Numbered from the stretch's first letter, positions 25,101-48,037 are shown. The stretch is 64,000 nucleotides of DNA from a virus (IMGVR_UViG_3300029142_000001:1-64000); one strand, 5' to 3'. Program-made: numbers and translations. Notes: generated from the letters alone by a model not told the origin.

Positions 25101-25560
25101 ATTCTCTTCGGGATTAATTGAATCAGCTTTGAAGTACTTTCCAAACCTGTGGGATGCATCATCGTGTCTTCTCGGATACGGAGAAATCATTGATGCCCAG
25201 GCATTGAGGGCAAAGATTACTTTTGAATGGGACAATCCAGAGCAAAAAAGAGATTGGAAGGAAAGAGGACTTTCTCCACGATCTATCAATGAAGAATTAG
25301 ATGTTTGGCTTGATCAGACAGTAACAAATCTATCTGGAAAGAGATATTGGATTGCAAAATCAAAAGCATTTGCCGGAAAGTACATGGATGGAAATCTTCG
25401 CCAATACACATATATGATCAAGGATGTATTCAATAACAAACTGTGGCATGATATTATTCGTGAGCATAAGCCTGTAGATTACACAAAGATGATTGAAGAA
25501 CATAACATGACAAAGGGTTCAGAAGAACTTGCATGTGCCGGTGGTACATGTGAAATTTAA
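22138..25560 (+). CDS. ribonucleotide reductase catalytic subunit (probably class II, NrdJ-like) containing an intein
   Basis: No ATP-cone and no adjacent small subunit; active-site NPC|VEI split by a 357-aa insertion; extein about 783 aa; CNLSTIN downstream. Confidence 0.75.
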   Translation: MSNISFPIENQNNDMADYCFVSKYAMYDKSKKRRESWPEATNRVMKCLTKKYPQMEDIIQNELHAAFNNKEILGSQRLLQFAGKAVEKHNLRVYNCAGSYVDRLDFFHECMYVLLCGTGAGFSVQKHHIAKLPGLKSQDQIQSRTLKTFVIPDTIEGWADAVGVLVSSYFSEPIEKFREYADSHVIFDYTEIRPEGSPFSHGIGRAPGPAGLQKTLEKIKELLDRLVKSQVKNIRPIHAYDMVMHIADAVLSGGVRRSATICMFSHDDMEMIQAKSGNWFIENPQRARSNNSAMLLRNKITRKEFEKFKEYTKQFGEPGFLWVDSLEYIFNPCLTDDTWIHTSDGPRMISDLMGTQFEAVVDGKIEQSTEKGFYNTGTQEVFEIHTDHGYTLRGTANHLIETEESGWVPIHLLNENDSIKLQDQRQFSSWDGQGSYSDGWLLGSLVGDGTFHDDTAYLCYWGETKEHMRKYAVDLLHESVSCRSHCGSAKSFVPHDKITISSRGLYDLASEFDIDKTKVLTDSVEKTSSSFHKGFLSGWFDADGSVQGNTKKGVSIRLTSTSLENLRRGQRMLLRMGVVSKIYENRREAGYREMPDGHGNTKKYYCKAVHELIVSKENILRFSKTIGFSDPEKQEKLDSLINSYTRTLNRESFTSRVTGIRSAGIEKVYDCTIDSDRHAFDANGITSHNCVEIMFYCYNEQGESGWQFCNLSTINGSLVKNKTDFYHAAEMASLIGTLQAGFHDFPYLGRVTEEIVRKEALIGVSITGMMTNPDILFDPETQRNAASKVRRMNQRIAKAIGINQAARNTCVKPEGSTTTMLGLAALSGCHAGKGKYILRRIQANKSENPVGFYKNINPTSVEHSVWSSGGTDDVITFCCVSDDDVIQEKNLTALEFLSKVLSTQMNWVEYGTNEELCSEPTMRHNVSNTVRVRDDEWDSVWDYIYENRQHFAGISFLSMTGDKDYNQAPFCEVFTADQIVEEYGQCSLFSSGLIESALKYFPNLWDASSCLLGYGEIIDAQALRAKITFEWDNPEQKRDWKERGLSPRSINEELDVWLDQTVTNLSGKRYWIAKSKAFAGKYMDGNLRQYTYMIKDVFNNKLWHDIIREHKPVDYTKMIEEHNMTKGSEELACAGGTCEI
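23134..24204 (+). mobile_element. LAGLIDADG-type intein in the RNR active site
   Basis: Begins with Cys (CLTDDTW), two LAGLIDADG-like motifs (LLGSLVGDGTF, LSGWFDADGSV), ends ...SHN followed by extein Cys. Confidence 0.7.
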
Positions 25561-26776: not shown

Positions 26777-27874
26777 ATGAATATTGAATCTTTAGGATTT
26801 ACAATTGTAGAACTTGAACAAGCCATTGAAGATGGCTTTGTTTCTGTTCGTGATCATCCTACAGAGGATCTTCGTATTTACAATTATACTGCAAAAGCAC
26901 AATATTCTAGAACATGGAATTCTGTAACAAGACAATGTAGAGGTCTTATTTTAGATCATGATTTGAACATCATTGCTTTGCCCTATGCTAAGTTCTTCAA
27001 TATTGAAGAAGAAATGGCAAATCCTGATAGTACTTGGCATACACCGACCAAATATTTCCTACAGGAAAAGCATGATGGTTGGTTGGGAATTCTTTATAGA
27101 GAACCAAAGTCTGGTTTGCTTTCAATTGCATCTCGTGGATCTTTTGATAGTTCTGGTGCTATTATTGCAACAAATATTCTCCGCACTAATCACTCTGATT
27201 TTGTTCCGGTGGAAGGTCTTACATACATGTTTGAAATCATTCATCCAGAAACAAAAATTGTTCTGGATTATGAAGGAAAAGAATCTCTCGTGTTTTTTGG
27301 CGTGAATAGTGTAAATGGACCCAACAATGATGTGAGTATATTTGACCAAATGCGGAAAAATGGTTTTGAAATTTGTGAATTCAAAGAACTTGGATGTGGA
27401 AATCTACGATTTTTGTTTGAAGAATACAAGCATGAAAATACAAAGAACAAAGAAGGATATGTTGTTGTAGATGCCAATGATTTTTCAAATCGGCTCAAGA
27501 TCAAATTTGAAAATTATATTCGTGATCATAGAATCATTACTCAACTAACCCCTCTTCGAGTGTGGGAAGCATTGCGTGATGGAGTCTACGATAATATTGT
27601 ATCCGTGTGTCCAGATGAGCATATGGAATGGTTACAGGAAATGCGAAATGAAATCGTAGAGCAATACAACGAAATTTTCTGGAAATCAAAGGCTGCGTTT
27701 GCAAGTTTGATGCTTCAGGTTTGGGATTTAATGTCCGATCCTTTGACTATTGATCGGAAAGAATTTGCTCAAAAAGCATTAAAATATCCAGAATTTGCAC
27801 CAATTTTGTTCGCTATGCTTGACAAAAAGGATTTTTCTCCTATAATTTGGAAGAAAATTAGACCAAATTCTTAA
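26777..27874 (+). CDS. rnlA: RNA ligase, Rnl1 family (T4 RnlA-like)
   Basis: LRIYNYTAKAQYSRTWNSVTRQCRGLIL and KFFNIEE parallel T4 Rnl1 YRIFSYNYASYSDW...ECRGIMF / KFFNLNE; motif I EKHDGW (KxDG). Confidence 0.65.
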   Translation: MNIESLGFTIVELEQAIEDGFVSVRDHPTEDLRIYNYTAKAQYSRTWNSVTRQCRGLILDHDLNIIALPYAKFFNIEEEMANPDSTWHTPTKYFLQEKHDGWLGILYREPKSGLLSIASRGSFDSSGAIIATNILRTNHSDFVPVEGLTYMFEIIHPETKIVLDYEGKESLVFFGVNSVNGPNNDVSIFDQMRKNGFEICEFKELGCGNLRFLFEEYKHENTKNKEGYVVVDANDFSNRLKIKFENYIRDHRIITQLTPLRVWEALRDGVYDNIVSVCPDEHMEWLQEMRNEIVEQYNEIFWKSKAAFASLMLQVWDLMSDPLTIDRKEFAQKALKYPEFAPILFAMLDKKDFSPIIWKKIRPNS

Positions 27875-28150: not shown

Positions 28151-29533
28151 ATGAACATGAATAATTTTATTTTGCGAACTGATGCATATAAGCTGACTCA
28201 CTGGCTCCAATATCCCCCAGGAACTCGGCATGTATATTCATACATGGAGTCTCGTGGTGGTGACGGTGACAGTACTTTGTTTTTCGGGTTGCAGTACTAT
28301 CTTCGTGAATATCTTGAAGGAACTGTTGTATCTCTAGAAGATGTTGATGAGGCACGAGAATTTGCACAATCTGTTTTCGGAACGGATAATTATTTTAACT
28401 ATGCTGGATGGTTGCGTATTGTGAATATGCATGGAGGTCGATTGCCTGTTCGTATTCGGGCTGTTGAAGAAGGGACTTGGATTGGTAAGCAAAATGTGAT
28501 GCTTACAATCGAAAATACAGATCCTGAACTTCCTTGGATTACTAATGTCATTGAAACTCTTTTGATGAAGCTTTGGTATCCAATTTCTGTTGCTTCTTAT
28601 TCTGGAAGCATCTATGATCTTCTTCGTGCAAAGGCAGCACTTACAGGTGGAGAAGTTTCTCCATTCCATTTGAATGATTTTGGATATCGTGGGGTTTCAT
28701 CCGAAGAATCTGCTGGTATCGGTGGGATGGCCCACCTTGTAAACTTCATGGGAACTGATACCCTTCGAGGAATCTTGTTTGCTCAGAAGTATTACGATGC
28801 AGAATATGGAACTGGTATGAGTGTTTTTGCTACGGAGCATTCCACAACCACAACTCACCTTGAATCGGGAGAAGAAGCAGCTATCGGTCAATATCTTGAT
28901 AACGCTGTAGGTATTGCTTCGATTGTTATGGATTCGTATGATACTTACCGATTTGTTGATGAATATATTGGAAAGGTATATCGAGATCGAATTGTTCATG
29001 GAAATGTCCGTGTTGTTCTTAGGCCAGATTCTGGAAATCCCATCGATCAAGTGATGTATATTCTGAATTCTTTGGAAAAGACTTTCCCGATTGAAAGAAA
29101 TGAAGAAGGATACAAACTACTTCATCCAAACATTGGAATCATCTATGGAGATTTCATGTCTTTTGAGACAATCGGAGAAGTTTGTAATGCCATGAAGGAT
29201 GCTGGATGGGCTATCGATGGTCGAAATGTGGTGTTTGGAATGGGTGGAAACCTTCTTCAGAACACTAATCGAGATACCCATCAATTCGCTCTGAAGTGTT
29301 CCTCATCGATGAACGGGGATGGGGAGTGGTTCGATGTCTACAAGGATCCAAAGACCATGCAATCTAAGAGATCCAAGAGAGGGCGTTTGGGACTGATTCG
29401 AGATGATAACGGAGATTTTCAAACTGTTCCAGAGGCTGATGGGGACGAATCTCTACTTTCCGTTGCTTTTGAAAACGGACGAATTGTTCGTCGCACAACA
29501 TTCAGTGCTGTTCAAAAGACTGCACAAATGTAA
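28151..29533 (+). CDS. nadV: nicotinamide phosphoribosyltransferase (NAMPT)
   Basis: N-terminal NFILRTDAYKLTHWLQYPPGT and overall 460-aa architecture typical of NAMPT/NadV. Confidence 0.8.
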   Translation: MNMNNFILRTDAYKLTHWLQYPPGTRHVYSYMESRGGDGDSTLFFGLQYYLREYLEGTVVSLEDVDEAREFAQSVFGTDNYFNYAGWLRIVNMHGGRLPVRIRAVEEGTWIGKQNVMLTIENTDPELPWITNVIETLLMKLWYPISVASYSGSIYDLLRAKAALTGGEVSPFHLNDFGYRGVSSEESAGIGGMAHLVNFMGTDTLRGILFAQKYYDAEYGTGMSVFATEHSTTTTHLESGEEAAIGQYLDNAVGIASIVMDSYDTYRFVDEYIGKVYRDRIVHGNVRVVLRPDSGNPIDQVMYILNSLEKTFPIERNEEGYKLLHPNIGIIYGDFMSFETIGEVCNAMKDAGWAIDGRNVVFGMGGNLLQNTNRDTHQFALKCSSSMNGDGEWFDVYKDPKTMQSKRSKRGRLGLIRDDNGDFQTVPEADGDESLLSVAFENGRIVRRTTFSAVQKTAQM

Positions 29534-30410: not shown

Positions 30411-30438
30411 TTGACTTTTCTTTATTTTTTGATATAAT
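30411..30438 (+). promoter_or_regulatory. promoter (cTTGACTTTt-16-TATAAT)
   Basis: -35 at 30411-30416, -10 at 30433-30438, AAGGAG RBS and ATG at 30458. Confidence 0.6.
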
Positions 30439-31338: not shown

Positions 31339-32313
31339 ATGTCTACACATATTTGTCCGGTAGTACGGATTAAAAAGAGTCCACACCCAAATGCGGATTC
31401 TCTTTCTATTATGGAAATTATGGGATATGAAGTAGCTTTACGGAGTGATGATTGGGAAGATGGTCAATTGGCTGTTCATATTCCTCCTGATTATTGGGTT
31501 CCAGATACTTATCCATTTCAGTTTCTAAAACCAACTTCAACAAAGTGGCAGCGTACTCGAACAAAGAAGTTTCGTGGTCGTTATTCCTATGGATTTTTGA
31601 TTCCTTTGCCTGAAGAATTAAATCTTCAGGTAGGGGATAATGCTATGGAAGCTCTTGGAATCATTCGATATGAAGCACCAGAAAACACTTTTTCTGGAGA
31701 TAATGAATCCGCACCAGAAGGAATTTATCCGAAATACGATATCGAAAACTATCAGAGATACACGGATCTATTGGTAGATGGTGAAACTCAGGTTATTGTA
31801 ACCGAGAAAATTCATGGTGCAAATGCTCGATTTGTATTTACAGACGGGCGTATGCGTGCCGGTACAAGAACTCAATGGAAGAAAAGAGATAGTACCTGTA
31901 TGTGGTGGAGAGCAGTAGAACAAAATCCTTGGATTGAGGAATGGTGTACTGCAAATCCAGACATTACCATATATGGTGAAGTATTTGGTAATGTTCAAAA
32001 TTTAAAGTATGGTGCGATCGGTGGACAAATTTTCTTCCGGGCGTTTGATCTTCTTCAAAATGGTGAATGGATTGATTACACTAATTCCAGAGAAATTGGA
32101 AAGGGTATCGAATGGGTTCCTCTTGTTTATAGTGGACCAATGAACATCGAACTCTTTTCGGAAATCATTTTGGGCAATACTCAATTGATGGATCCAAAGA
32201 ATGCTCATATGATGGAGGGCGTGGTTATTCGTCCATTTGAAGAGATGTATGATTCTTCTGTTGGAAGAGTTATTCTTAAGCTTGTCTCGCCTAGATATTT
32301 GGAGAAGAACTAA
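31339..32313 (+). CDS. RNA ligase, Rnl2-like nucleotidyltransferase domain fused to an N-terminal Myf/EMAP-type tRNA-binding OB domain
   Basis: N-terminal ICPVVRIKKSPHPNADSLSIMEIMGYEVALRSD...QLAVHIP fits the tRNA-binding arm consensus (v.kI...HPnAdkL.v..vd.G); motif I EKIHGANARF matches Rnl2 KIHGTN. Confidence 0.6.
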   Translation: MSTHICPVVRIKKSPHPNADSLSIMEIMGYEVALRSDDWEDGQLAVHIPPDYWVPDTYPFQFLKPTSTKWQRTRTKKFRGRYSYGFLIPLPEELNLQVGDNAMEALGIIRYEAPENTFSGDNESAPEGIYPKYDIENYQRYTDLLVDGETQVIVTEKIHGANARFVFTDGRMRAGTRTQWKKRDSTCMWWRAVEQNPWIEEWCTANPDITIYGEVFGNVQNLKYGAIGGQIFFRAFDLLQNGEWIDYTNSREIGKGIEWVPLVYSGPMNIELFSEIILGNTQLMDPKNAHMMEGVVIRPFEEMYDSSVGRVILKLVSPRYLEKN

Positions 32314-32627
32314 TGGGTGTGTCTATTTTTAAGGTCTCAAATGGAACAAATATAGAAAAGGGAAATCCTAATCCCAAAAATTTTAATATTTTAGAGGTTA
32401 GGGAAATAGATTCATATTTGATTGCTAAAATTAATTTTCCAGATTGTACAAATTACGAGGGAAACAAAATAATTGTTTTCCAAAATATGTCAAGCAAACA
32501 TCTTTATACCCTAAAAGATGTTGACCCACATTTTACAGAGAATAATAGCATAATTGCTAGATTTAGACCAGATGAGCTAGGAATGAAGATGGCAGTTTTG
32601 TTGTGTGTTAATTCAAAAGGATTATAG
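32313..32627 (+). CDS. hypothetical protein
   Basis: 104-aa ORF, ATG overlaps the upstream stop. Confidence 0.4.
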   Translation: MGVSIFKVSNGTNIEKGNPNPKNFNILEVREIDSYLIAKINFPDCTNYEGNKIIVFQNMSSKHLYTLKDVDPHFTENNSIIARFRPDELGMKMAVLLCVNSKGL

Positions 32628-32628: not shown

Positions 32629-33348
32629 ATGAGTAAAAAAGTCATGTTGGTTATTGCGAATTACAAAGACGAGAGGCAATCTATTTTTGATAATCAAATC
32701 TCTCCGAGAAATCAAGAATTTGCAGATGAACATGGATACGAATATATTGTCAGTAAAGGCGGTGATATATTTCGAGGTAATCCAACATGGTGGAAATTTA
32801 CTATACCTGTACAAATGATTAATGAGGGTGTTCTTCGACAAGAAGACACTCTTTTACATTTAGATGCAGATATGGTTATCACCAGAATCGGTAAAGATTA
32901 TCCTAATGATAAAACTTTTGCATACTCCATTGATAATGGAAATACGCATTGCATGGGAAATTATTCTCTTAAGATCAATGATTGGTCTGTAAATATGATT
33001 CGCCATATTCTTAGTGAAGAACTTTGGATGAAGATGCAAAATGATTATCATTGGTCCAGATTCAGAGAACAAGCTGCTTGGTATACTCTTTCTGGTGTGT
33101 GTCATCATAGCTGGGTTCCATTTTTGGATATGCCGAATTATGGATGGCATTCACACTTTACGGATGAAACTCGATATTCTGTAAGAGAACTACACGAAAG
33201 AGTGCATGTTTTAGGACCAGAATGGAATACGACTCTTGTAAATCCTCAAGAGAGATACTATATTCAACCATCAGACCCAAGCGAAACAATAATTAGACAT
33301 TTTGCTGGTGGTCAAAGATGGGATGTTAGTGATTGGATTTGGGCATGA
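32629..33348 (+). CDS. putative GT-A glycosyltransferase (DxD)
   Basis: LHLDADMVI DxD motif; start placed at MSKKVML after GGATTATAG RBS-like stretch. Confidence 0.4.
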   Translation: MSKKVMLVIANYKDERQSIFDNQISPRNQEFADEHGYEYIVSKGGDIFRGNPTWWKFTIPVQMINEGVLRQEDTLLHLDADMVITRIGKDYPNDKTFAYSIDNGNTHCMGNYSLKINDWSVNMIRHILSEELWMKMQNDYHWSRFREQAAWYTLSGVCHHSWVPFLDMPNYGWHSHFTDETRYSVRELHERVHVLGPEWNTTLVNPQERYYIQPSDPSETIIRHFAGGQRWDVSDWIWA

Positions 33349-34247
33349 AAAAAGATACAATTAGAATATGTTTTGTAGATTTTTGGCCTAATCTGTTCCA
33401 GGACGATAATTATTTTTATAATCTTCTATCAACAAAATACAATGTGATTATTGATTTTGAAAATCCAGATATTGTATTCTATTCTGTTGATTATATGAGG
33501 CGTGGAGATATTCGTAGATACATGGATAAACCATGTAAAAAGATCTATTACACAGGAGAAAACACACTTCCTGATTGGAATGTTGCTGATCTCGGATTCA
33601 CATTCGATTATGCATCACATGGAGGAAAGAACTACAGACTTCCTCTTTGGTCTCTCCTTATTAACTGGTTTGATCGTCCATACATTCAAGAAAGAGATCA
33701 TGCATATCTCCATGATCCAGAATATCTTCTAAATTCTAAGAAATTCTCCGGATTCAAGAATCTATTTTGTAATTTTGTATACACACAACCCAAAGCCCGT
33801 AGAGTTACTATATTCCCTAAATTGACCGAGGCATTTCCGGGTATGATTCATTCTGCTGGATCTGTTTTTAACAACACCGGAACAAAACTTCCCGGTCGTG
33901 GAGATACAAAGGATAAAGTAGATTATTTGTCAAATTTTAAATTTACCATCTCATTTGAGAATCAACAAGCAAGTGGATATCAAACCGAAAAAATATTCCA
34001 TCCAATGATGGTTGGAAGTATTCCAGTTTATTGGGGAAATCCAACTGTAAAGACTGATTTTAATCCAGACTCTTTCATCAATGCAAATACCATGACTGAT
34101 GAAGAGGTTATACATAGAATGCGTGAAATTCATGAAGATGATGAGCTATATCAGCATATCTTATCTCAACCGTGGTTTCACGATAATAAGTTTCCAGATT
34201 TTATCATGCCCACTAATGTTCTTGCAAAGATAGAGAGTATTTTATGA
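33345..34247 (+). CDS. alpha-1,3-fucosyltransferase-like (GT10)
   Basis: FKFTISFENQQASGYQTEKIFHPMMVGSIPVYWG matches the GT10 FxLxFEN...DYxTEK motif. Confidence 0.55.
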   Translation: MKKDTIRICFVDFWPNLFQDDNYFYNLLSTKYNVIIDFENPDIVFYSVDYMRRGDIRRYMDKPCKKIYYTGENTLPDWNVADLGFTFDYASHGGKNYRLPLWSLLINWFDRPYIQERDHAYLHDPEYLLNSKKFSGFKNLFCNFVYTQPKARRVTIFPKLTEAFPGMIHSAGSVFNNTGTKLPGRGDTKDKVDYLSNFKFTISFENQQASGYQTEKIFHPMMVGSIPVYWGNPTVKTDFNPDSFINANTMTDEEVIHRMREIHEDDELYQHILSQPWFHDNKFPDFIMPTNVLAKIESIL

Positions 34248-34909
34248 TTCCAACAACTTATGTTTTACATTATGATAAATTGCCAGAGAGAAGACAATTT
34301 ATGGAATATCAATTTGAACATCAAAAATTTTGTGATGTTGTTTGGTATACCGATGAGGAAGATAATCTAGAAGGAATTTACGATGGTGTAAACTCTTCTA
34401 GATTTACTGAAAAGGTCCGGATTGGTGGTTGGAATACAGAAGAACATCGTCCCCGATTTTTAAATCAAGCAGAAATATCATTAACAGCAAAATTCGGAAG
34501 AGTTTTTAGATTGATCGCAGAAAATCCAAATCCATATTCTTTGCTGTTTGAAGATGATGCTTGTTTATGCCCACATTTTCTTCAAAATATGAATTTATAT
34601 TTGCATAACACTCCAGATGATTGGGATGTTATCTATATGGGATCTGGTGCAAATTTACATCCTAAAAATCTTGAAATTGGAAAATATGCATATTTGATGG
34701 ATCATCCAGCTTCTCGTTGTGCAGATTCTATTCTTATCAAAAGAGAAGCGGCCAAGAAACTCGCAGATGATTTCTTTCCGTTTGATCTCTGTTCAGATTG
34801 GGAAATTGGATATCTTCAGGCAAAACATAAAATGAATGTTTATTGGTGGGAACCTTCTTTGGTTCATCAAGGATCTGAAACTAATCTCTTTAATTCTTCT
34901 CTAAGGTAA
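34244..34909 (+). CDS. glycosyltransferase family 25 (LPS/LOS-type)
   Basis: YVLHYDKLPERRQFMEYQF N-terminal and LLFEDDACLCPHF motif typical of GT25. Confidence 0.5.
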   Translation: MIPTTYVLHYDKLPERRQFMEYQFEHQKFCDVVWYTDEEDNLEGIYDGVNSSRFTEKVRIGGWNTEEHRPRFLNQAEISLTAKFGRVFRLIAENPNPYSLLFEDDACLCPHFLQNMNLYLHNTPDDWDVIYMGSGANLHPKNLEIGKYAYLMDHPASRCADSILIKREAAKKLADDFFPFDLCSDWEIGYLQAKHKMNVYWWEPSLVHQGSETNLFNSSLR

Positions 34910-34915
34910 AAGTAT

Positions 34916-35497
34916 ATGTCAGAAAGATACATCATAACCCCAGGAGCGTGTGGAACACATGCTCTTATAGATTTTATGGGGTCAAGCTATTCGAAACGAG
35001 ATCATCATCGTAGAAACTCAAATAGCTTTCAGGCAAATTCAAAAATTGTGTATCTTTTTGCAAATCCATATGATACCATTCTTTCTTTTTTCAGGAGAAA
35101 CGATCAAGGAGGAAAATTCCTTGAATCTCATTGCAAACATATGGAAGGAAATGATGGATATTTCCATAAGAAGAAAATTACACTGGAAGAGTTTTTGAAA
35201 GATCCCAATGATCCTTTCATGCTGGAAGATCATTATCTGGAGTATGTAAATAATGTAAATAGAAACTATGATCTTCTGGTTGTAAGATATGATACTCTTA
35301 AATATGAAGGTCCAAAATCGATTATTGATTTTTGGGGATTGGATATCGATCCATCCAAATTTAAATTTATAAAAAGAAATTCTTGTTGGACTGATCAGTC
35401 AGAAGAAATACAGGATCTTTTTTATCAGAAATATGGAAAGTTCAAAGACATGTATGATCAGCTTCCTAATTCCCAATTGTATAAGAGAGAAAATTAA
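34916..35497 (+). CDS. putative sulfotransferase
   Basis: IITPGACGTHAL (5'-PSB-like P-loop) and LFANPYDTILSFF (3'-PB RNPxD-like) motifs. Confidence 0.4.
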   Translation: MSERYIITPGACGTHALIDFMGSSYSKRDHHRRNSNSFQANSKIVYLFANPYDTILSFFRRNDQGGKFLESHCKHMEGNDGYFHKKKITLEEFLKDPNDPFMLEDHYLEYVNNVNRNYDLLVVRYDTLKYEGPKSIIDFWGLDIDPSKFKFIKRNSCWTDQSEEIQDLFYQKYGKFKDMYDQLPNSQLYKREN

Positions 35498-36465
35498 TGA
35501 AAAAAATTGTATTTTATTCTGATCATTGTGATATTCGAGGAACTGGAATTACCATTTTTGAATTCGCTATTGGATGTCGAGATATTCTTGGTCATGATGT
35601 TCTTTGTGCTTTTTCCAGAAATAACAAGCACAATCATCCAGACGCAATCAAAAAATTTGAAGATCATGGACTTACAATGGCATGGTTTGATGATGTTCAT
35701 CAAGCAAAGAATATTATTCCGAGTCTTGGCTATGAGTATGTTTTTCAGATTCGAAGTGAGGGGTATAACCCGGATTATGATTTTCCTGGTATGAAGAATT
35801 TGATTCAACAAACAGGTGTTCGAACTCCTGCAAGTCAAGCCTATGGTCATAGATATTCCCATGTATCTCGATGGGTAGATAAATTTTGTGGTGGTGATGG
35901 ATCAAATGCTGTTCCAATCCCTATTCGTCTTCATGAAACAAAAGAAGATTTGAGAGAAGAATTAGGAATTCCTAAAGAAATGACTATTTTTGCAAGAACT
36001 GGTGGTGAAGATACTTGGAATCTTTGGTTTGCTAATAATGCAATTGTAAAGGCTTTGGAACAAAATGAAAATATAGGATTTTTGTTCCAAAATACTCCGA
36101 ATGTTCCCTCTCATCCAAGAATATTTCATGCAAGAACAACAGCAGATGCAGAGTATAAAAGAAAATTTATTAACACATCTGATTTTATGCTTCATTGTCG
36201 AGTAGAAGGAGAATCTTTTGGAGTTGCTGTTGCTGAATTTTCATCTGCAAATAAACCTGTAATCACATGGTCAGAATCACGAGAAAGAGCCCATATAGAT
36301 TATTTGGGTTCTAAGATGTATCAATATACGACTGAAGATCAATTGGTCAATCTTTTAATTTATTTTGATCGTGGAGGGAAAGCAAAAATAGGTGATTGGA
36401 ATGCATATGAAGATTTCACTTCAGAAAAGATCATGAAAACATTTGAAAGGATCTACCTATCATGA
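35497..36465 (+). CDS. glycosyltransferase, GT-B fold
   Basis: EGESFGVAVAEFSSANKPVI matches the E..FG...EA...G.PVI donor-binding motif. Confidence 0.5.
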   Translation: MKKIVFYSDHCDIRGTGITIFEFAIGCRDILGHDVLCAFSRNNKHNHPDAIKKFEDHGLTMAWFDDVHQAKNIIPSLGYEYVFQIRSEGYNPDYDFPGMKNLIQQTGVRTPASQAYGHRYSHVSRWVDKFCGGDGSNAVPIPIRLHETKEDLREELGIPKEMTIFARTGGEDTWNLWFANNAIVKALEQNENIGFLFQNTPNVPSHPRIFHARTTADAEYKRKFINTSDFMLHCRVEGESFGVAVAEFSSANKPVITWSESRERAHIDYLGSKMYQYTTEDQLVNLLIYFDRGGKAKIGDWNAYEDFTSEKIMKTFERIYLS

Positions 36466-37265
36466 GAAATGAACTAACTGTACTTATTCCTACACATGCA
36501 GTCAAGGTTGAACAGATTGGACCATACAAAAATCATCGTCAACAAAATCGAACCGCTCCATATACCGATTTGATTGAAAAGGTGATCAAAAACATTCAAG
36601 AATCATTAACTTTATTTGATTTACAATTTGTGATTGGATTGGATCATAAAGAAGACGATGATCTTTCTTGTGAGTATTTGGAAAATCTCAAGAAATTGGG
36701 CCATACTGTGATAACAACAGATTCTAAACTTGAAGATAAACCTCTTACAACTGTTACAGCAACTAGAAACTTTTTGAATCTCATTGATCATTCTCCTACC
36801 GAATGGTTTATGTTATGGGAGCATGATTGGGTATTTTCAGATTCTGACTTTATTCGAGAAAAGCAAGAATCTATTTTAGCAAGTACATTATGGCATACTC
36901 CATTGGGAAGAGATGTCATGCTTAGATTTAACCAAAGAGAAAATAAAACATATGAAGGCCATGAATTTGTATGGGTTGAATATGAATCTCCAGAAACAAA
37001 AGGCCAAGTTTTAAGAACAAGTCTCTATTCTAATAATCCATTCATCACCAGTAAAACATATTGGAAAAAATTCTTCGAGCCATATGCAAGAGAAATTCCT
37101 GATTGGTGGGGAGAACATGGGGCATTTATTGAAGGTCCAATCAATAGAAATCTTAAAGAAAAACACAATGTAGAAGATTATACGATTAACCTATTTGGAA
37201 ATATGGGAATGAAAGCCTCAGTTCATCATTTAAACGGGCAAGTATGGGATAATAGAAATGACTAA
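36462..37265 (+). CDS. hypothetical protein, possible GT2-like glycosyltransferase
   Basis: ELTVLIPTHA resembles the GT2 N-terminal strand; weak. Confidence 0.3.
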   Translation: MRNELTVLIPTHAVKVEQIGPYKNHRQQNRTAPYTDLIEKVIKNIQESLTLFDLQFVIGLDHKEDDDLSCEYLENLKKLGHTVITTDSKLEDKPLTTVTATRNFLNLIDHSPTEWFMLWEHDWVFSDSDFIREKQESILASTLWHTPLGRDVMLRFNQRENKTYEGHEFVWVEYESPETKGQVLRTSLYSNNPFITSKTYWKKFFEPYAREIPDWWGEHGAFIEGPINRNLKEKHNVEDYTINLFGNMGMKASVHHLNGQVWDNRND

Positions 37266-38151
37266 AAAAATTGCGATGTTTTGGGATTATGATCCAAATC
37301 AACCAGATCAATGGTGCACTCCTTATGGGATTTATAGTCATCTCAAAAATGTTTTTCGATATGAGATGAGGCAATATTGTACTCTTAAAGGAGACAAGAC
37401 AAAAGGATTCAGAGATTATCTTGAAGATGATTTTCAAGCTGATGCTCTTGTTCTTTTTAATGCTGGACCACTTCCAGGAGCAGAAAATTACTGGAATAAA
37501 GAAGTTATGGGAGATGCTCTATTAATTCAAGAAGCTGGTGATGAACCTCAATGCTATAATCACACTCTTTCATTTAGTACAAATTCTGATCTTGTCCTCA
37601 CTCCCGATCTCCGATGTGTAGAGATGTATGAAACTCGTGGAGTTAATGTTGAATGGATGACTCATTGGTGTGATGAAAAGATTTTTTTCGACAAACCAGA
37701 TCAAGAAATTACAAATGATGTTGTCAGTTCTATGTGTGGAGGAAGACAAAGAGCAAGTGTCATTCAAAATCTTGTTGGTCCAGAAAAATTTAAAAATGCG
37801 ACTGGATTAATCGGATTGCAAAATGGAGAATGGCTTCGAACAGGAAAAATTATTCTCCAAGATTCTAGATATGATGAAATAACCAGAAGAATTTTCGAAG
37901 GTATGGGATGTAAAAGAATGGTCCTGACAGATAGGATTTCGAAGGATACAGGACTTGAAGATCTTTTTGTTGATAGAGAGGATATCGTATATTACGACTC
38001 ACCAGAACATGCGGTTGAACTTATTGAGTACTATCTTAAGAATGATTCTGAAAGAGAAAGAATAGCCGAAAATGGCTATTTAAAGGTCATGGAGGGGCAT
38101 ACTTCTCTCCATAGAGCAGATCAAATTTCTCAATTTATTTTATCAAATTGA
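37258..38151 (+). CDS. CgeB-like glycosyltransferase (putative)
   Basis: C-terminal EHAVELIEYYLKNDSERERIAENGYLKVMEGHT resembles the Glyco_trans_1_2/CgeB C-terminus. Confidence 0.4.
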   Translation: MTKKIAMFWDYDPNQPDQWCTPYGIYSHLKNVFRYEMRQYCTLKGDKTKGFRDYLEDDFQADALVLFNAGPLPGAENYWNKEVMGDALLIQEAGDEPQCYNHTLSFSTNSDLVLTPDLRCVEMYETRGVNVEWMTHWCDEKIFFDKPDQEITNDVVSSMCGGRQRASVIQNLVGPEKFKNATGLIGLQNGEWLRTGKIILQDSRYDEITRRIFEGMGCKRMVLTDRISKDTGLEDLFVDREDIVYYDSPEHAVELIEYYLKNDSERERIAENGYLKVMEGHTSLHRADQISQFILSN

Positions 38152-38153
38152 CT

Positions 38154-38181
38154 TGACTTTTACATGTTTTTCTCCTATACT
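38154..38181 (+). promoter_or_regulatory. promoter (TTGACTTT-16-TATACT) with conserved RBS cassette
   Basis: -35 at 38154-38159, -10 at 38176-38181, GGAAAGGAGAA RBS. Confidence 0.6.
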
Positions 38182-38200
38182 ATGGGAAAGGAGAAATACC

Positions 38201-38416
38201 ATGAATATGGATACTATTAAAACTCTTCTCCAAGAAGGAATCCACGATGTTACATCTGATTCACCTGACTTTTATGAGCGTGATTCTAGAGAATGTATGA
38301 GAATTGCCCGTATGGAAAATGGATTTATTTCATTGATTGGTATTCTCGTTGAAAACGGCATTCTCAAAGAAGATGATGTCCTTAAGATTGAAATGGATAT
38401 TTATCATACTTATTAA
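38201..38416 (+). CDS. small early protein
   Basis: 72 aa; start chosen downstream of the promoter/RBS cassette. Confidence 0.5.
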   Translation: MNMDTIKTLLQEGIHDVTSDSPDFYERDSRECMRIARMENGFISLIGILVENGILKEDDVLKIEMDIYHTY

Positions 38417-38902: not shown

Positions 38903-38931
38903 TTGACTTTTGCATGTTTTACTACTATACT
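38903..38931 (+). promoter_or_regulatory. promoter (TTGACTTT-17-TATACT), near-identical cassette to 38154
   Basis: ttgacttttgcatgttttactactatactatgggaaaggagaatt is a close copy of the 38154 cassette. Confidence 0.6.
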
Positions 38932-38950
38932 ATGGGAAAGGAGAATTATC

Positions 38951-39154
38951 ATGTTGACTCAAGGAACCATTCTTGTTGCCCCCGCTGGAAACTTTATTCT
39001 CGGGGCCATTACAATTTATCCGGATCCTATTGATAATACTCCAGTTATTGAAATTCCTGCTACGCATATAGGAACAAATCAAACTCATATGTTGAATGTT
39101 GAGTCAACTCTTCAAAATATTGCTGAAGGCGTGATTAAAATTCATGAGAAATAA
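38951..39154 (+). CDS. small early protein
   Basis: 67 aa downstream of the cassette. Confidence 0.5.
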   Translation: MLTQGTILVAPAGNFILGAITIYPDPIDNTPVIEIPATHIGTNQTHMLNVESTLQNIAEGVIKIHEK

Positions 39155-40072: not shown

Positions 40073-40669
40073 ATGGATAAAATGTTGGCAAAATGTTTTG
40101 AAATTTCGATGAAAGCTCATGAAGGTCAGACTCGAATTGGTGGGGGATCATATTTCTTTAATCATGTTTTGGAAGTATATGCTCGTGCAGTTGCGGCAAT
40201 TCCCGAAGAGTATGATGATTCATCGGAACTTCGACTTATTATTGGATGTATTGCTCTTCTTCATGATGTAGTAGAAGATTGTGAAGATTGGACCATTGGA
40301 AGAATTAAAAAAGAATTGTCGGGCATGGAACATTCCCAATCTGTTATTTTATTTACAAATGAAATGGATTTAAATCAATGGGTTCAAACCCAATATGATT
40401 CAAAAACCGATAAAATCGTGTATATGATGGAAAATTGTTCTAGATATACTGCTATTGTGAAGCTTGCAGATAGATTGTGTAACATCAAAACACTTCATGA
40501 ATTGGAACAATGGAATTCAACAAAGAAATATGATTATCTTATGGATGCAACGATTATTTGCCATAAAGCAGCTAAAAGATTTTATTATTTTGAACCTGTA
40601 TTGGCCTTATCTCTACACCTAAAAAGAGAGATTCGTAAGCAATTAACCCATTTGAATGGAGAGCAATAA
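40073..40669 (+). CDS. HD-domain (p)ppGpp hydrolase-like small alarmone hydrolase
   Basis: KAHEGQTRIGGGSYFFNHVLEV...ALLHDVVED matches the SpoT/Mesh1 HD hydrolase core (H...HD...ED). Confidence 0.55.
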   Translation: MDKMLAKCFEISMKAHEGQTRIGGGSYFFNHVLEVYARAVAAIPEEYDDSSELRLIIGCIALLHDVVEDCEDWTIGRIKKELSGMEHSQSVILFTNEMDLNQWVQTQYDSKTDKIVYMMENCSRYTAIVKLADRLCNIKTLHELEQWNSTKKYDYLMDATIICHKAAKRFYYFEPVLALSLHLKREIRKQLTHLNGEQ

Positions 40670-42353: not shown

Positions 42354-42620
42354 ATGTGGAAATTTTTTAAGAGATTTCAAACGCGAGATCTTATTCGAGA
42401 GAACATCGAAAATATCGATCCATCTGATTTTGAACTGCAACTTGTAGAACTTAAAGCTGGTTTTTTGGAAGATTGTAGATTTGATAAGAGAGGGTATCAT
42501 CATACCAAATATTTCATTTTTAAGTATTCTGGTCATATCGTTCTTATGATTAATGGAGTTCAGGAACGAGTAGATGAGCCCTGGTTGGTTAACTATTACG
42601 AGAGAATTATTGCATCATAG
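42354..42620 (+). CDS. hypothetical protein
   Basis: 88-aa ORF after the promoter. Confidence 0.45.
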   Translation: MWKFFKRFQTRDLIRENIENIDPSDFELQLVELKAGFLEDCRFDKRGYHHTKYFIFKYSGHIVLMINGVQERVDEPWLVNYYERIIAS

Positions 42621-42633
42621 TAAAGGAATAAAA

Positions 42634-43845
42634 ATGCAGCATGTAGTTTACGATAAGAATTCTGGAATGCGTGTTCCTGTCAAGGTTTGGACCAAGGATT
42701 ATGAACGGTCAGCACTTGAACAAGCAATGAATGTTGCTCGTCTTCCGTTTATTCATAGTCATGTTGCACTTATGCCTGATACACATTTTGGGTATGGTGT
42801 TCCTATTGGATCCGTTGTTCCCTGTGATGGTTATGTGATTCCCAACGCGGTTGGAGTTGATATCGGATGTGGTATGTGTGCTGTGAACACTCGTATTCAT
42901 CTAGGGGATTTTAGTGATTCTGATATTGATACTCTTTTCAATACATTGAAGACTAGAATTCCTGTTGGTTCAAACTGGCATAAGTCAGATGAATATACTG
43001 CATTGCGATTCGATGAAACCGCTAATGAATTGGCAGATATTTTTGGTCGATATGATCCTGTTGGAAAGAAGCCAATCGATGAAAATTCTTTGGTTCGAAT
43101 GTCTGGAACACTCGGAGATGGAAATCATTTCGTTGAGCTTCAGATTGATGAACACAAGAATATTTGGATCATGATTCATTCGGGATCAAGAGCTTTTGGT
43201 GCATCTATCGCAGATCATTATCATCGTCTTGCAAAGAGAATGTGTGAGCTATACCATAGTGACCTTCCTACGCTTGATCTTGCATATCTTCCTGTGAATT
43301 CCGAAGAAGGACAGGGATATATCCAGGCAATGAATCTTGCTTTGGAATTTGCATATCTTAACCGACGAGTAATGATGCTCAATGTGTTGGAAGTGCTGAG
43401 AAGTATGATTCATGGGGCTCCTATGATGGATGAAATGATTAACATCCACCATAACTATGCAGCCATTGAAAATCACAGAGGAAAGAATGTGTGGGTGCAT
43501 AGAAAGGGAGCAACTTCTGCCCGAGAAAATCAGATTGGAATTATTCCTGGATCTATGTGTACCAAGTCGTACATTGTAAGAGGAAAGGGAGATGGTCATT
43601 CCTTTATGTCTTGTTCTCATGGATCGGGTAGAAACTTCAGTCGAAAGGAAGCAAAGAGACGAATTGATGATGGAATTGATCCTTCTCAGGAAGATCAGTT
43701 GAACGGAGTCAAGGTTTTTGGAGCTTCGGATGTTCGTGATGAAGTTTCATCGGCATATAAGAATGTGGAAGATGTCATGGGATATCAGACAGATTTGGTT
43801 GAAATTTTGCATGAATTGCGTCCTCTGGCAGTTCTAAAGGGTTAA
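42634..43845 (+). CDS. rtcB: RNA-splicing ligase RtcB
   Basis: MPDTHFGYGVPIG, GVDIGCGM, GDGNHF, HSGSRAFG, NIHHNY, CSHGSGR motifs of the RtcB family; start at 42634 after AAAGGAATAAAA. Confidence 0.85.
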   Translation: MQHVVYDKNSGMRVPVKVWTKDYERSALEQAMNVARLPFIHSHVALMPDTHFGYGVPIGSVVPCDGYVIPNAVGVDIGCGMCAVNTRIHLGDFSDSDIDTLFNTLKTRIPVGSNWHKSDEYTALRFDETANELADIFGRYDPVGKKPIDENSLVRMSGTLGDGNHFVELQIDEHKNIWIMIHSGSRAFGASIADHYHRLAKRMCELYHSDLPTLDLAYLPVNSEEGQGYIQAMNLALEFAYLNRRVMMLNVLEVLRSMIHGAPMMDEMINIHHNYAAIENHRGKNVWVHRKGATSARENQIGIIPGSMCTKSYIVRGKGDGHSFMSCSHGSGRNFSRKEAKRRIDDGIDPSQEDQLNGVKVFGASDVRDEVSSAYKNVEDVMGYQTDLVEILHELRPLAVLKG

Positions 43846-46187: not shown

Positions 46188-46260
46188 GGGGGATTGGTGA
46201 AACTGGATATCATGAAAGACTACGAATCTTTTGTTCCGAGTTCGAATCTCGGGTTCCCCG
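46188..46260 (+). tRNA. tRNA-Arg (anticodon ACG)
   Basis: Acceptor GGGGGAT/GTTCCCC (2 GU), AC stem aaaga/tcttt loop ctACGaa, T-arm ccgag-ttcgaat-ctcgg; D-arm not cleanly resolved. Confidence 0.55.
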
Positions 46261-46268
46261 TTTAAACT

Positions 46269-46352
46269 GGAAGAGAACCGGCTGGATCAGGAGCCTGTCT
46301 TGAAAACAGGTAGGGTTAATAGCCCTTGGGGGTTCGAGTCCCCCCTCTTCCG
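46269..46352 (+). tRNA. tRNA-Ser (anticodon TGA), class II
   Basis: Acceptor ggaagag/ctcttcc, AC stem cctgt/acagg loop ctTGAaa, long variable arm, T-arm ggggg-ttcgagt-ccccc. Confidence 0.7.
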
Positions 46353-46374
46353 CTTCTATTTAAAGGAGAAAAAT

Positions 46375-46572
46375 ATGAAAATTTTAGCAGTTTTAGTGTT
46401 TTGCTTGTTTGTTCTTTCTGGATGTTCAACATCTAGTACAGATGTTTCCCAGGTTGATGACTCCGGAGTATCATTAACCGTGGTTAATCCAGATACAGGC
46501 ATTCAAGAAACACTTCGTTTCGATTCTAAAAGAGAAGCAGATGAATACATGTCGGGATTGTATTCAGATTAA
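46375..46572 (+). CDS. small secreted/lipoprotein
   Basis: MKILAVLVFCLFVLSGC signal/lipobox after TAAAGGAGAAAAAT RBS. Confidence 0.5.
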   Translation: MKILAVLVFCLFVLSGCSTSSTDVSQVDDSGVSLTVVNPDTGIQETLRFDSKREADEYMSGLYSD

Positions 46573-46593
46573 TTTTTTCAAAAAGGAAGAAAA

Positions 46594-47436
46594 ATGCACA
46601 GACTAATTTCGTTGATACTATTTTGCATCGTATGTTTAAGCATAGGTACAAGTTCAGCATTTGCAAGTGGAGATTATCCGTATCCATATACAGGACCAAG
46701 TGATGGTCAGTCTGGATATGGATATGTTCCTGAACATCACTACGATCCAGGAACAGGAAATGGACCTACAGATCCATATACTATTTTCCTTTTGGAAATG
46801 ATTAATGGAGCAGATGAATATGAAGAAGTAAGCAAGAAGAATTTGTCTCTTTGTTTATTCTTTGCAACTACTCCGTATGAAAGATTGCAATGCATCATCG
46901 GCCATGCAAGTAACGATCGAATCGAAGCAGAAAAACACCATGCTTGGATGCAAAGACGAGACAATTACATGCAATTTTTATTCTGTAGATGTATGGAAAA
47001 TGCAGGAGATTTTGGTACATGTAACGATAAGTATCCAACACATCCAAACGATCCTACATGGTACCCAACTCCATCATATTGTGATGGACTAGATGAGGCA
47101 ACTTGCCCTGAATGGGATCCAGATGCTGGTGAAGATGGTTTCGGTGGTTGTGTGGGTCAAGGAGAAGGAGATTGGGATTGGCTTGAAAATCTGAATTACC
47201 CAGTTGGTGATCCAGAAAGCAATGACGGATTCGATTCTTGGACACAAGAAATGCACGATGTTTATGAGGACTGGAGAGTTTCAGTTGCAACAAACATGAG
47301 AGATTTCTATACAGATATTGAAAACGGAGAAACTCTTGAAGATGCAATCGTTTTCTTTTACATTGCATATGATGCTGATACAAGTGCTTTTATCTCATCA
47401 TTTTACGCAGAAGTTATCGCATCTGGTAACTATTAA
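46594..47436 (+). CDS. secreted cysteine-rich protein
   Basis: Signal peptide MHRLISLILFCIVCLSIGTSSAFA; acidic, Cys-rich mature region. Confidence 0.5.
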   Translation: MHRLISLILFCIVCLSIGTSSAFASGDYPYPYTGPSDGQSGYGYVPEHHYDPGTGNGPTDPYTIFLLEMINGADEYEEVSKKNLSLCLFFATTPYERLQCIIGHASNDRIEAEKHHAWMQRRDNYMQFLFCRCMENAGDFGTCNDKYPTHPNDPTWYPTPSYCDGLDEATCPEWDPDAGEDGFGGCVGQGEGDWDWLENLNYPVGDPESNDGFDSWTQEMHDVYEDWRVSVATNMRDFYTDIENGETLEDAIVFFYIAYDADTSAFISSFYAEVIASGNY

Positions 47437-47466
47437 GTATAAACACATTGCCCTATAAGGGCAATT

Positions 47467-47551
47467 GGAAGATAATCCCCGATGGTGAAGGGCCTCGCTT
47501 GGAAAGTGAGTGGAGCTTAATAGGCTTCTGGTTCGATTCCAGTATCTTCCG
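47467..47551 (+). tRNA. tRNA-Ser (anticodon GGA), class II
   Basis: Acceptor ggaagat/atcttcc, AC stem ctcgc/gtgag loop ttGGAaa, long variable arm, T-loop ttcgatt. Confidence 0.6.
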
Positions 47552-47580
47552 TTTTTAAAATCTCATTTTAAATAAAATCT

Positions 47581-47669: not shown

Positions 47670-47675
47670 CTTAAC

Positions 47676-47749: not shown

Positions 47750-47762
47750 TTTTGAAAATTAC

Positions 47763-48022: not shown

Positions 48023-48037
48023 TTATAGGAATTTATA

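Follow-up and report, generated by a model that had tools for sequence, protein, structure and literature searches.

Organization of the cluster

The window, a 64,000-nucleotide (64-kb) stretch of DNA, comes from an uncultured, AT-rich, marine T4-like phage. Its primase is of the phage gp61-like type, and a T4-type RNA ligase gene and a tRNA array are found in the region. At positions 32629-38151 of the plus strand there are seven contiguous ORFs (G1 to G7), each starting with ATG. These ORFs, their flanking features, and a second cluster on the minus strand are as follows.

30411..30438, plus strand: candidate sigma-70-like promoter TTGACT-16-TATAAT, 11 of 12 consensus positions matched
32313..32627, plus strand: G0, hypothetical ORF of 104 aa between the RNA ligase gene and G1
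32629..33348, plus strand: G1, soluble DxD protein of 239 aa
33345..34247, plus strand: G2, GT10 alpha-1,3/4-fucosyltransferase-like protein of 300 aa
34244..34909, plus strand: G3, GT25-family glycosyltransferase of 221 aa
34916..35497, plus strand: G4, minimal sulfotransferase-fold protein of 193 aa, putative glycan-tailoring enzyme
35497..36465, plus strand: G5, probable GT4-like GT-B protein of 322 aa with EX7E motif ESFGVAVAE
36462..37265, plus strand: G6, protein of 267 aa
37258..38151, plus strand: G7, CgeB-like GT-B glycosyltransferase (Glyco_trans_1_2) of 297 aa
38153..38181, plus strand: promoter-like site TTGACTTTT...TATACT, one base past the G7 stop codon
662..3675, minus strand: M1-M4, four overlapping genes
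2276-2959, minus strand: M3, nucleotide-diphospho-sugar transferase (PF03407 at 1.5e-19)

The spacings between successive genes from G1 to G7 are -4, -4, +6, -1, -4, and -8 nt. The initial annotation described a translationally coupled cluster of seven genes, and this layout agrees with it. Upstream, G0 is joined to the RNA ligase gene at -1 nt and to G1 at +1 nt; it has no Pfam match and is absent from the conserved block at related loci. Each of G1-G7 has homologues elsewhere (34-79% identity), and five of them are found in unchanged order in other viral contigs. Therefore, all seven ORFs are real genes. Transmembrane-like segments were found in none of the cluster proteins.

Promoters were called purely as consensus matches. 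The site at 30411..30438 belongs to a motif family, TTGACTTTT-N14-TATAMT, which occurs 8 times where chance would give 0.04, each time on the plus strand. It is the closest strong candidate 5' of the cluster, and the transcription unit would start there. The site at 38153..38181 is probably the 3' limit of the unit; further on, AAAGGAGA precedes the ATG at 38201. The motif flanks the unit and does not occur inside it. Because they follow one another with hardly a gap and have an early-type sigma-70-like promoter on either side, G1-G7 are probably expressed from one transcript early in infection.

Predicted glycosyltransferases of the cluster

The initial annotation described G2 as a GT10 alpha-1,3-fucosyltransferase-like protein, and this is supported. 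It matches both FucT_N (PF18025; 1.5e-18, 67.5 bits, gathering score 27.2) and Glyco_transf_10 (PF00852; 1.1e-13, 51.7 bits, gathering score 23.9). Its residues 8-273 align to Helicobacter pylori FucT (GT10; 2nzw) at 9.4e-23 (phmmer), where YYTGEN is paired with FYTGEN, the Arg of PKARRV with the Arg of NAPIRN, and FENQQASGYQTEK with FENTQGYGYVTEK. FENQQASGYQTEK is the form that the FENxxxxxYxTEK motif takes in G2. Thus the FxxxFENxxxxxYxTEK motif of alpha-1,3-fucosyltransferases, the catalytic Glu of GEN, and the Arg are all kept, as they are in the H. pylori enzyme (2nzw, 5zoi). The matched H. pylori chains have 371 and 420 aa, while G2 has 300 aa and lacks the C-terminal part, which in full-length H. 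pylori FucT carries heptad repeats and amphipathic helices. G2 is the catalytic core alone, without C-terminal repeat or membrane anchor. The prediction of a GT10 fucosyltransferase-like protein is solid, and GDP-L-fucose would be its donor.

The assignment of G3 as a GT25 enzyme is also supported. The match to PF01755 is marginal in G3 itself (24.3 bits, cut-off 24) and clear in its orthologue in the viral contig L014 (34% identity; 44.7 bits, E 1.8e-11). G3 has an acidic motif, FEDD, and matches PHROG families 2835 and 854, both glucosyltransferases. G5, proposed earlier as a GT-B enzyme, is probably a GT4-like GT-B glycosyltransferase. It has the EX7E motif, and across this region it matches Glycos_transf_1 (PF00534) weakly (11.7 bits, gathering score 26.4, E 0.19). 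Its L014 orthologue (35% identity) matches the same family at 24.2 bits (E 2.8e-5), and G5 matches a PF00534 protein in contig L006 at 7.7e-6 (tblastn). G5 has no sequence match in PDB. G7 was called CgeB-like and this holds: it matches PF13524 at 7e-23 (81.6 bits, cut-off 25) and has homologues in L014 (39% identity) and L009 (34%).

The two remaining genes belong to poorly annotated families. G1 has a large, unannotated, marine family of 327 homologues, none of which has a Pfam domain. G1 itself has no Pfam match and its family profile no PDB match. D79-A80-D81 is invariant in 35 aligned sequences, among which weak matches to Glyco_transf_34 are found in four (best 0.0016) and to DUF273 in three. 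The proposed GT-A DxD assignment is partly supported; G1 is probably a GT-A-type, GT34-like glycosyltransferase. G6 had been considered a possible GT2, which the searches do not bear out: G6 and its 16-member family have no match in Pfam, PHROG, NCBIfam, or PDB. None of the 17 homologues carries a Pfam domain, and hhalign against GT2, GT25, and PF03407 sequences gives probabilities below 1%. The family alignment contains the motifs IPTHA, DHKxD, TATxNF, and WEHDW, and the order IPT / DHKxD / WEHDW suggests a GT-A-like layout. In L009 a G6 homologue lies alongside a G7 homologue and an epimerase.

The window also has the second, minus-strand glycosyltransferase cluster that had been noted. Its genes exist at 662-3675, with M3 the clear member and M1 showing a weak GT-D-like match (0.0084).

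A minimal sulfotransferase-fold protein

G4 had been described as a sulfotransferase with both PAPS-binding motifs. The fold, the homology, and both loops are there; the Lys of the one loop and the Arg of the other are not. The HMM check that clearly supports GT10 for G2 gives G4 a score just reaching the cut-off for Sulfotransfer_1 (PF00685; 22.7 bits, cut-off 22). PF00685 is matched by 38 of 64 members of the G4 family, and a profile of these 64 sequences gives SULT chains as matches at 5.6e-8. The sulfotransferase fold of G4 and its homology to the family are confirmed; its cofactor site is atypical. All 64 members have H31 and R154. H31 lies before the 3'-PB strand and R154 in the loop that leads into the last helix, positions that correspond in topology to the catalytic base (His) and to the C-terminal, 3'-phosphate-binding RK(G) loop.

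Known counterparts of G4 are cytosolic PF00685 sulfotransferases such as mSULT3A1 (7v1o), SULT7A1 (5x2b), and SULT1B1, and also StaL and TPST. The 5'-PSB loop of G4 reads TPGACGT. Where sulfotransferases have a catalytic Lys or Arg (PKSGTT or PRSGS; Lys in cytosolic SULTs), G4 has Ala and the 64 family members have Gly (41), Ser (9), Ala (8), Cys (5), or Asn (1); in either possible register, none has Lys or Arg. The Arg of RNPKD at the 3'-PB (canonical motif RNPxDxxxS) is Ala in G4 and is replaced by Gly (23), Ala (14), Ser (13), or Cys (7) in 57 of the 64, while the 3'-PB Ser (S57) is kept in 59. As is established for SULT1E1, the PSB-loop Lys and the 3'-PB Arg of characterised sulfotransferases make contact with the sulfate-bridging oxygen and with the 3'-phosphate. 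G4 also lacks the substrate-binding loops of cytosolic SULTs, is approximately 90 residues shorter than its PDB matches (193 vs 281-350 aa), and sits in phage glycosyltransferase operons.

Since the Lys position is substituted throughout the family and the Arg position in most of it, a PAPS-dependent activity of G4 is uncertain. G4 may instead use changed chemistry or another donor (e.g., APS or another nucleotide-linked group), or may only bind a ligand, so that the glycan would be fucosylated but not classically sulfated. We consider this quite possible, though short of probable. The two substituted positions, the small size, and the borderline PF00685 score speak for it, as does the lack of any PAPS-synthesis gene near a G4-like gene at the loci examined.

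The G4 family consists of approximately 340 metagenomic proteins, most of them unnamed and around 200 aa long (source names were checked for 10), and its closest members are phage-borne. G4-like domains are also found fused to a GT11-like domain, a SAM methyltransferase, or a GT2-TPR protein. Annotated sulfotransferase-family proteins exist in the cyanophages P-SSM7 (196 aa), ACG-2014f (207 aa), and S-SCSM1 (281 aa), and S-SRM01 and OM43 phages have Sulfotransfer_3 proteins. These small proteins are, like G4, phage-encoded, about 200 aa long, and similar in general fold (Foldseek TM 0.36-0.45, probability 0.57-0.87). However, they have no detectable sequence similarity to G4 and belong to PF13469 where a Pfam family is stated. 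They are described as proteins of unknown function (PMC10580990).

Related clusters in other viruses

Three IMG/VR contigs (L014, L015, and L019; 32-49% identity) preserve the order G1-(MTase)-G2-G3-G4-G5, with G1 homologues 47% identical in L014 and L019. There the block follows genes for GDP-mannose 4,6-dehydratase (Gmd; 3.4e-157) and an Fcl-like epimerase, and psbA is nearby; these are cyanophage contigs. G2 orthologues (47-49% identity) are thus found in operons that start with GDP-fucose synthesis genes. M3-like and M2-like genes adjoin the G7/G1/G2/G3/G4/G5 homologues in the same three contigs. A second architecture (L017 and L018) has Gmd and an Fcl-like gene, and a GT6 gene directly 5' of the G4-like gene. 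Related clusters also carry FkbM sugar O-methyltransferases. T4-like contigs have further G4 and G1 homologues, in glycan clusters that lie downstream of regA. The 64-kb window itself has neither gmd nor fcl.

Clusters of this kind are known. In marine T4-like phages, glycosyltransferase and LPS-gene clusters are common and are read as modifying the host O-chain (PMC7029224), and genes for fucosyltransferases are present together with gmd and fcl in the cultured cyanophage S-SCSM1 (PMC9602691). As in the present cluster, those of cyano- and pelagimyophages are runs of soluble glycosyltransferase genes in variable genome regions, with or without nucleotide-sugar enzymes; fucosylation genes are included and the presumed role is host-surface modification (PMC9602691, PMC7029224). 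Unlike S-SCSM1, for which GT11, NodZ, or POFUT-type fucosyltransferases are listed, the window has a GT10 enzyme. Synechococcus phage S-SKS1, of a different lineage (Llyrvirus), has a cluster (SWZG_00055-00038) with Gmd, an Fcl-like epimerase, and M3-like, M2-like, and GT25-like proteins. It shares with the present cluster the GT10 fucosyltransferase (37% identity to G2; its annotated gene is shorter) along with a G5-like protein (36%), but lacks homologues of G4, G1, and G7. The G1, G4, and G6 families have no tblastn match in 50,697 deposited phage genomes.

Fucosylation cassettes have already been reported in marine phages, as have sulfotransferase genes. Since phage sugar cassettes are already known, only G4 is unusual: the cassette is of an ordinary type, and one tailoring enzyme in it is atypical.

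Possible function and acceptor

We consider it somewhat probable that the cluster is a modular, early co-transcribed glycan-assembly cassette. Five or six soluble glycosyltransferases (G1, G2, G3, G5, G7, and possibly G6) and the tailoring enzyme G4 would act in the cytoplasm on nucleotide sugars, building or extending a fucose-containing oligosaccharide. GDP-fucose would be supplied by the host or by phage genes outside the 64-kb window. G4 would then decorate the oligosaccharide, with sulfation from PAPS as the likeliest reaction. The earlier proposal of a sulfated, fucosylated glycan divides accordingly into two parts: fucosylation is likely, and sulfation is no more than possible.

The most likely acceptor would be a precursor of the host's envelope glycans (an intermediate of LPS, capsule, or EPS), and the altered surface of the infected cell may, for example, block superinfection. 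The host envelope is only the default reading, as an initiating transferase, a flippase, a polymerase, and a transporter are all missing from the cluster.

The same make-up, soluble enzymes without lipid-carrier or export functions, would fit direct glycosylation of proteins in the cytoplasm. The cassette might then modify the phage's own capsid or tail fibres. Particles would carry a coat with fucose and possibly sulfate groups, which would influence their adsorption, stability, or grazing. Mycobacteriophages are an established case of virions that are glycosylated by the phage's own glycosyltransferases. In contig L016 a G4-like gene adjoins genes for two proteins of kinds typical of fibres, one with collagen repeats and one with a beta-helix, and the G4 fold has giant-virus homologues in capsid-glycosylating genomes (judged by names only). 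However, the present cluster lies among early-type promoters and nucleotide- and RNA-metabolism genes and not in a structural module, in T4-like relatives it is in the replication module after regA, and no protein-O/N-glycosyltransferase signature was found. We regard a virion target as unlikely.

DNA is a far less credible acceptor still. Glycosyltransferases might hypermodify phage bases to evade restriction, as with the glucosyl-hmC of T4; this T4-like phage has a gene for a thymidylate-synthase-family enzyme (21242-22117), and T-even phages have glycosyltransferases acting on DNA (as cited in PMC7029224). But GT10, GT25, GT4-like, and CgeB-like enzymes use glycan, lipid, or protein acceptors, and homology to the T4 alpha- and beta-glucosyltransferases is absent. 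The PHROG families matched by G3 are generic 'glucosyltransferase' moron families. GDP-fucose synthesis, FkbM O-methyltransferases, and GT6 in related clusters make up an oligosaccharide pathway. Assembly of a fucose-containing glycan on a host envelope precursor is thus the reading that we prefer.

A bolder idea, which we hold to be improbable, concerns G4. Its family may form a new clade: minimal enzymes of the sulfotransferase fold that dispense with the canonical PSB-loop Lys and 3'-PB Arg, either by using other conserved arginines (R33, R60, R61) in their place or by drawing on a non-PAPS donor (e.g., APS). In concert with GT10, GT25, and the GT6 enzymes of relatives, they would produce sulfated Lewis- or blood-group-like glycans. 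If this is true, marine phages would make such glycans on infected cells or virions.

Organization and predicted transcription of the cluster

Seven ATG-started open reading frames (ORFs), denoted here as G1 to G7, occupy positions 32629-38151 on the plus strand. The gaps between consecutive ORFs are -4, -4, +6, -1, -4, and -8 nt. Upstream, a 104-aa ORF and an RNA ligase gene are joined to this run. No transmembrane-like segment is present in any of the seven proteins.

Genes of the glycan cluster
32629-33348, plus strand, G1, orphan family
33345-34247, plus strand, G2, predicted GT10 fucosyltransferase
34244-34909, plus strand, G3, GT25-like
34916-35497, plus strand, G4, sulfotransferase-like (193 aa)
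35497-36465, plus strand, G5, Glycos_transf_1-like
36462-37265, plus strand, G6, family with conserved motifs
37258-38151, plus strand, G7, CgeB-like

A promoter-like motif, TTGACTTTT-N14-TATAMT, is found in eight copies in the window (0.04 expected), every one on the plus strand. These sites are probably the early promoters of the phage. TATAAATA, the T4 late promoter, occurs in the window no more often than expected (7 sites vs. 6.9).

Promoter-like sites in the window
11153, 25855, 30174, 38153, 38903, 44108, 44464, 54155 (within 11153-54183), plus strand, TTGACTTTT-N14-TATAMT
30411 (30411-30438) and 39764, plus strand, consensus match with a 16-nt spacer

After the 30411 unit, the next promoter-like copy begins at 38153, one base past the stop of G7, and there is no strong promoter-like site between 30411-30438 and 38153. 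From consensus matches only, we infer a single early-type transcript from ~30.4 to 38.15 kb. Four copies with a common motif context (30411, 38153, 38903, and 39764) were aligned. Each has a gene start downstream, and in three of them this start is preceded by an AAAGGAGA ribosome-binding site and consists of an ATG. Note that two ORF calls, 38153-38416 and 38903-39154, take the TTG in a promoter -35 box as their first codon and thus have similar false N-termini (MTFTCFSPILWERR and MTFACFTTILWERR). The true start of the 38153-38416 ORF is probably the ATG at 38201, following the ribosome-binding site. For the 38903-39154 ORF, an equivalent ribosome-binding site and ATG are visible in the alignment of the promoter copies.

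Putative glycosyltransferase genes

The initial annotation described fucosyltransferase-like (GT10), GT25, and CgeB-like genes in this cluster, and profile searches bear out all three, GT25 marginally. G2 matches FucT_N (1.5e-18) and Glyco_transf_10 (1.1e-13), each over the Pfam cut-off. It also matches 2nzw, the Helicobacter pylori fucosyltransferase (9.4e-23), and the alignment pairs up the GEN, Arg, and FEN-x5-Y-x-TEK elements. G2 is thus firmly predicted to be a GT10 enzyme. G7 matches PF13524 at 7e-23. The GT25 match of G3 is barely over the cut-off (24.3 vs. 24 bits); its orthologue in the related IMG/VR contig L014 (34% identity) scores 44.7 bits. G3 is also the sole cluster protein with a match among PHROGs. 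G5 has a weak Glycos_transf_1 match located on the EX7E motif. G5 matches a PF00534 protein at 7.7e-6, and an orthologue of G5 matches PF00534 at 2.8e-5.

The other two genes belong to families with less annotation. The G1 family includes >300 marine proteins (Tara, JGI, and ENA) with ~50% identity, has an invariant DAD motif, and has no Pfam domain. Weak GT34 matches are found in only four of 35 members, and the family profile has no match in PDB. By these comparisons G1 appears to represent a well-conserved orphan family. G6 has 17 homologues with the conserved motifs IPTHA, DHKxD, and WEHDW. It was proposed as a possible GT2, a label that is rejected here as unsupported: G6 has no match in the Pfam, PHROG, NCBIfam, or PDB libraries, and neither hhalign against sequences of GT2, GT25, and PF03407 nor a profile-profile comparison with G1 lends support. 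NCBIfam has no match for any of the seven proteins, and PDB sequence and profile searches with G1, G3, G5, and G6 produced nothing meaningful.

Glycosyltransferases of the cluster could also be thought to take part in DNA hypermodification. The enzyme families present in the cluster speak against this role, making it highly improbable.

The sulfotransferase-like gene

Taken alone, G4 is a borderline member of the sulfotransferases. It scores 22.7 bits against PF00685 (cut-off 22 bits), over residues 38-153 only, and phmmer against PDB finds SULTs at E ~0.14. A word-indexed protein search returned a single homologue, P0002 (42% identity). With an exhaustive HMMER search, 339 proteins were recovered at E <=1e-3, mostly of 190-210 aa. 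From an alignment of 64 of these family sequences, the profile matches cytosolic sulfotransferases at 5.6e-8, and 38 of the 64 match PF00685. The sulfotransferase assignment thus has HMM support. A genome-contig profile scan with a narrower G4 alignment found no cellular relatives. The AF2 model of G4 based on the 64-sequence alignment has a pLDDT of 96.2; it replaced, after the exhaustive search, an unusable model from a two-sequence alignment (pLDDT 48.8).

G4 had been described as having both PAPS-binding motifs. Both loops are recognizable, but their key basic residues are not kept. Column counts over the 64 members give [ST]-x-G-[GSAC]-[CSVA]-G-[TS] for the 5'-PSB loop. Where the catalytic Lys of PKSGTT would stand, the members have Gly (41), Ser (9), Ala (8), Cys (5), or Asn (1), and never a basic residue in either register. 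The 3'-PB segment reads Y-[LVI]-[YF]-[GASC]-[ND]-P-x-[DN]-x-x-x-S, in which the Ser is kept in 59/64 members and Gly, Ala, Ser, or Cys stands in for the Arg of RNPKD in 57/64. All 64 members have H31 and R154, Y125, D99, and P51 are nearly invariant, and R61 and R33 are found in 56 and 46 members, respectively. Based on topology and partial HMMER alignments, H31 is tentatively mapped to His108 of SULT1E1, S57 to Ser138, Y125 to Tyr193, and R154/S156 to Arg257/Lys258. Residue roles follow the SULT1E1 literature. By our own count, G4 would retain about five of seven canonical contacts and lack two basic residues that are key. The predicted cofactor site of G4 is thus atypical.

PAPS-dependent sulfuryl transfer by G4 has roughly even chances. 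That its chemistry is non-classical is nearly as plausible as not; this is a separate question, which overlaps the other readings of the cluster. No PAPS-synthesis genes were seen beside the G4-like genes in four related loci (L001, L014, L016, and L017). G4-like domains are fused to a GT11-like domain and to a SAM methyltransferase (among proteins P0263, P0282, P0280, and P0149), and one is fused to an unassigned DxD-like domain. In the cyanobacterium Gomphosphaeria aponina, another forms the C-terminal end of a GT2-GT2-TPR protein of 1759 aa. G4 also aligns structurally with a Megaviridae protein of 429 aa that is named GT25. These fusions and the structural match, together with the gene neighbourhoods, point to glycan tailoring.

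Gene order in related loci

The most informative loci are three IMG/VR contigs, L014, L015, and L019. In L014 the gene order is Gmd (3.4e-157), Fcl-like epimerase, M3-like, M2-like, G7-like (39%), G1-like (47%), FkbM methyltransferase, G2-like (47-49%), G3-like (34%), G4-like (40-42%), G5-like (32-35%), FkbM methyltransferase, and epimerase. All of these 13 genes abut or overlap, and psbA is nearby. L015 is the same as L014 across homologous genes, and L019 has no detectable G7-like gene. From the gene orders of these three contigs, therefore, the order G1-G5 is conserved across deep divergence, and the block is linked to GDP-fucose synthesis in related phages. Homologues of M3 and M2, which belong to a second cluster on the minus strand of the window, are physically joined to the block in all three contigs.

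Another architecture is found in L017 and L018, which have Gmd and an Fcl-like gene at the start. In this architecture a GT6 gene (2e-48; 7198-7989 in L017) is located directly upstream of a G4-like gene (7986-8591 in L017), and a second G4 paralogue exists in the same cluster (3899-4513 in L017). GT6 is the blood-group A/B-type glycosyltransferase family. Its position beside the G4-like gene hints at blood-group- or Lewis-like glycans.

P0002, the closest homologue of G4, is found in T4-like contigs (L001-L003) with gp45, gp44, regA, DNA polymerase B, and a RecA-family (UvsX-like) gene. Its glycan cluster differs from that of the window and includes Gly_transf_sug, Glyco_trans_1_2, methyltransferase, epimerase, and GT2 genes. 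A G1 homologue is found inside another post-regA glycan cluster (L006-L008), and homologues of G6 and G7 are found together with an epimerase in L009. In the marine T4-like contigs L001-L003 and L006-L008, a glycan island exists at one place within the replication module, directly downstream of regA (gp45-gp44-regA-island), and its gene content varies between contigs.

The source phage

The window is AT-rich (GC ~34%) and derives from a large phage, known so far from a contig of ~79 kb. Its gp61-type primase is matched in 2,401 phage records, mostly T4-like, with a best identity of 36% to cyanomyophage primases. The cluster as a whole has no megablast match among 50,697 deposited phage records. 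The source is therefore an uncultured phage and no more than a distant relative of the known T4-like phages. Thymidylate synthase and exonucleases are also encoded. Genes are on the minus strand in 1-10053 and on the plus strand in 10769-64000, and the sign of the GC skew flips at the same place (~10 kb).

RNA-related genes in the window
26777-27874, plus strand, T4 Rnl1-type RNA ligase
31339-32313, plus strand, second (PF09414) RNA ligase
42574-43845, plus strand, RtcB
46188-63246, array of 24 tRNA genes

Together these look like a module for tRNA repair and replacement. Other genes include a class II (B12-dependent) ribonucleotide reductase (22138-25560; 1140 aa) split by an intein that carries a homing-endonuclease domain of the LAGLIDADG type, NAMPT (nicotinamide phosphoribosyltransferase; 28151-29533), which is an NAD-salvage auxiliary gene, an HD-domain protein (40073-40669), and an SPFH/Band 7 protein (4209-5210, minus strand).

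Known systems and proposed function

Islands of glycosyltransferase and LPS genes are reported to be common in pelagimyophages and cyanomyophages and have been read as modifying the host O-chain (PMC7029224). The products of such islands in marine T4-like phages are uncharacterised, with function merely presumed (PMC7029224, PMC9602691). S-SCSM1 carries gmd, fcl, and several fucosyltransferases (PMC9602691). Sulfotransferase genes of unknown function are listed in phages and viromes (PMC10580990, PMC8290583), and small sulfotransferase-family proteins are already annotated in P-SSM7, ACG-2014f, and S-SCSM1. A cassette of glycan genes is thus a known kind of system and is to be expected in a marine phage. 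New here are this particular conserved block and the G4 family, which is atypical and unannotated. G1 and G6 likewise represent families that lack annotation and are missing from deposited phage genomes; tblastn with G1, G4, or G6 against the 50,697 records gave no match. Synechococcus phage S-SKS1, which is in culture, also carries Gmd, Fcl-like, M3-like, M2-like, GT25-like, FucT, and G5-like genes; G4, G1, and G7 are missing from it.

In our best reading, the cluster would be a co-expressed cytoplasmic assembly line for a fucose-containing oligosaccharide, which G4 would tailor, and the most likely acceptor would be an intermediate of a host envelope glycan. As a whole, this statement is held with slightly better than even confidence. 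Neither gmd nor fcl was found in the window, and no acceptor-defining gene was found in the cluster. Glycosylation of the virion by the cassette is a serious rival that we consider rather unlikely.

The conserved, portable five-gene block G1-G5, tied to GDP-fucose synthesis in relatives, leads to a concrete prediction, a fucosylated oligosaccharide. Having much of the pathway, S-SKS1 offers a partly cultured handle. The G4 family consists of very small, unannotated proteins with the sulfotransferase fold, and the residues conserved among them differ from those of the textbook PAPS site. Should G4 prove inactive as a sulfotransferase, the family would represent a change of function inside the sulfotransferase fold. 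If it is active, phages would sulfate glycans, and a minimal sulfotransferase scaffold would be defined.
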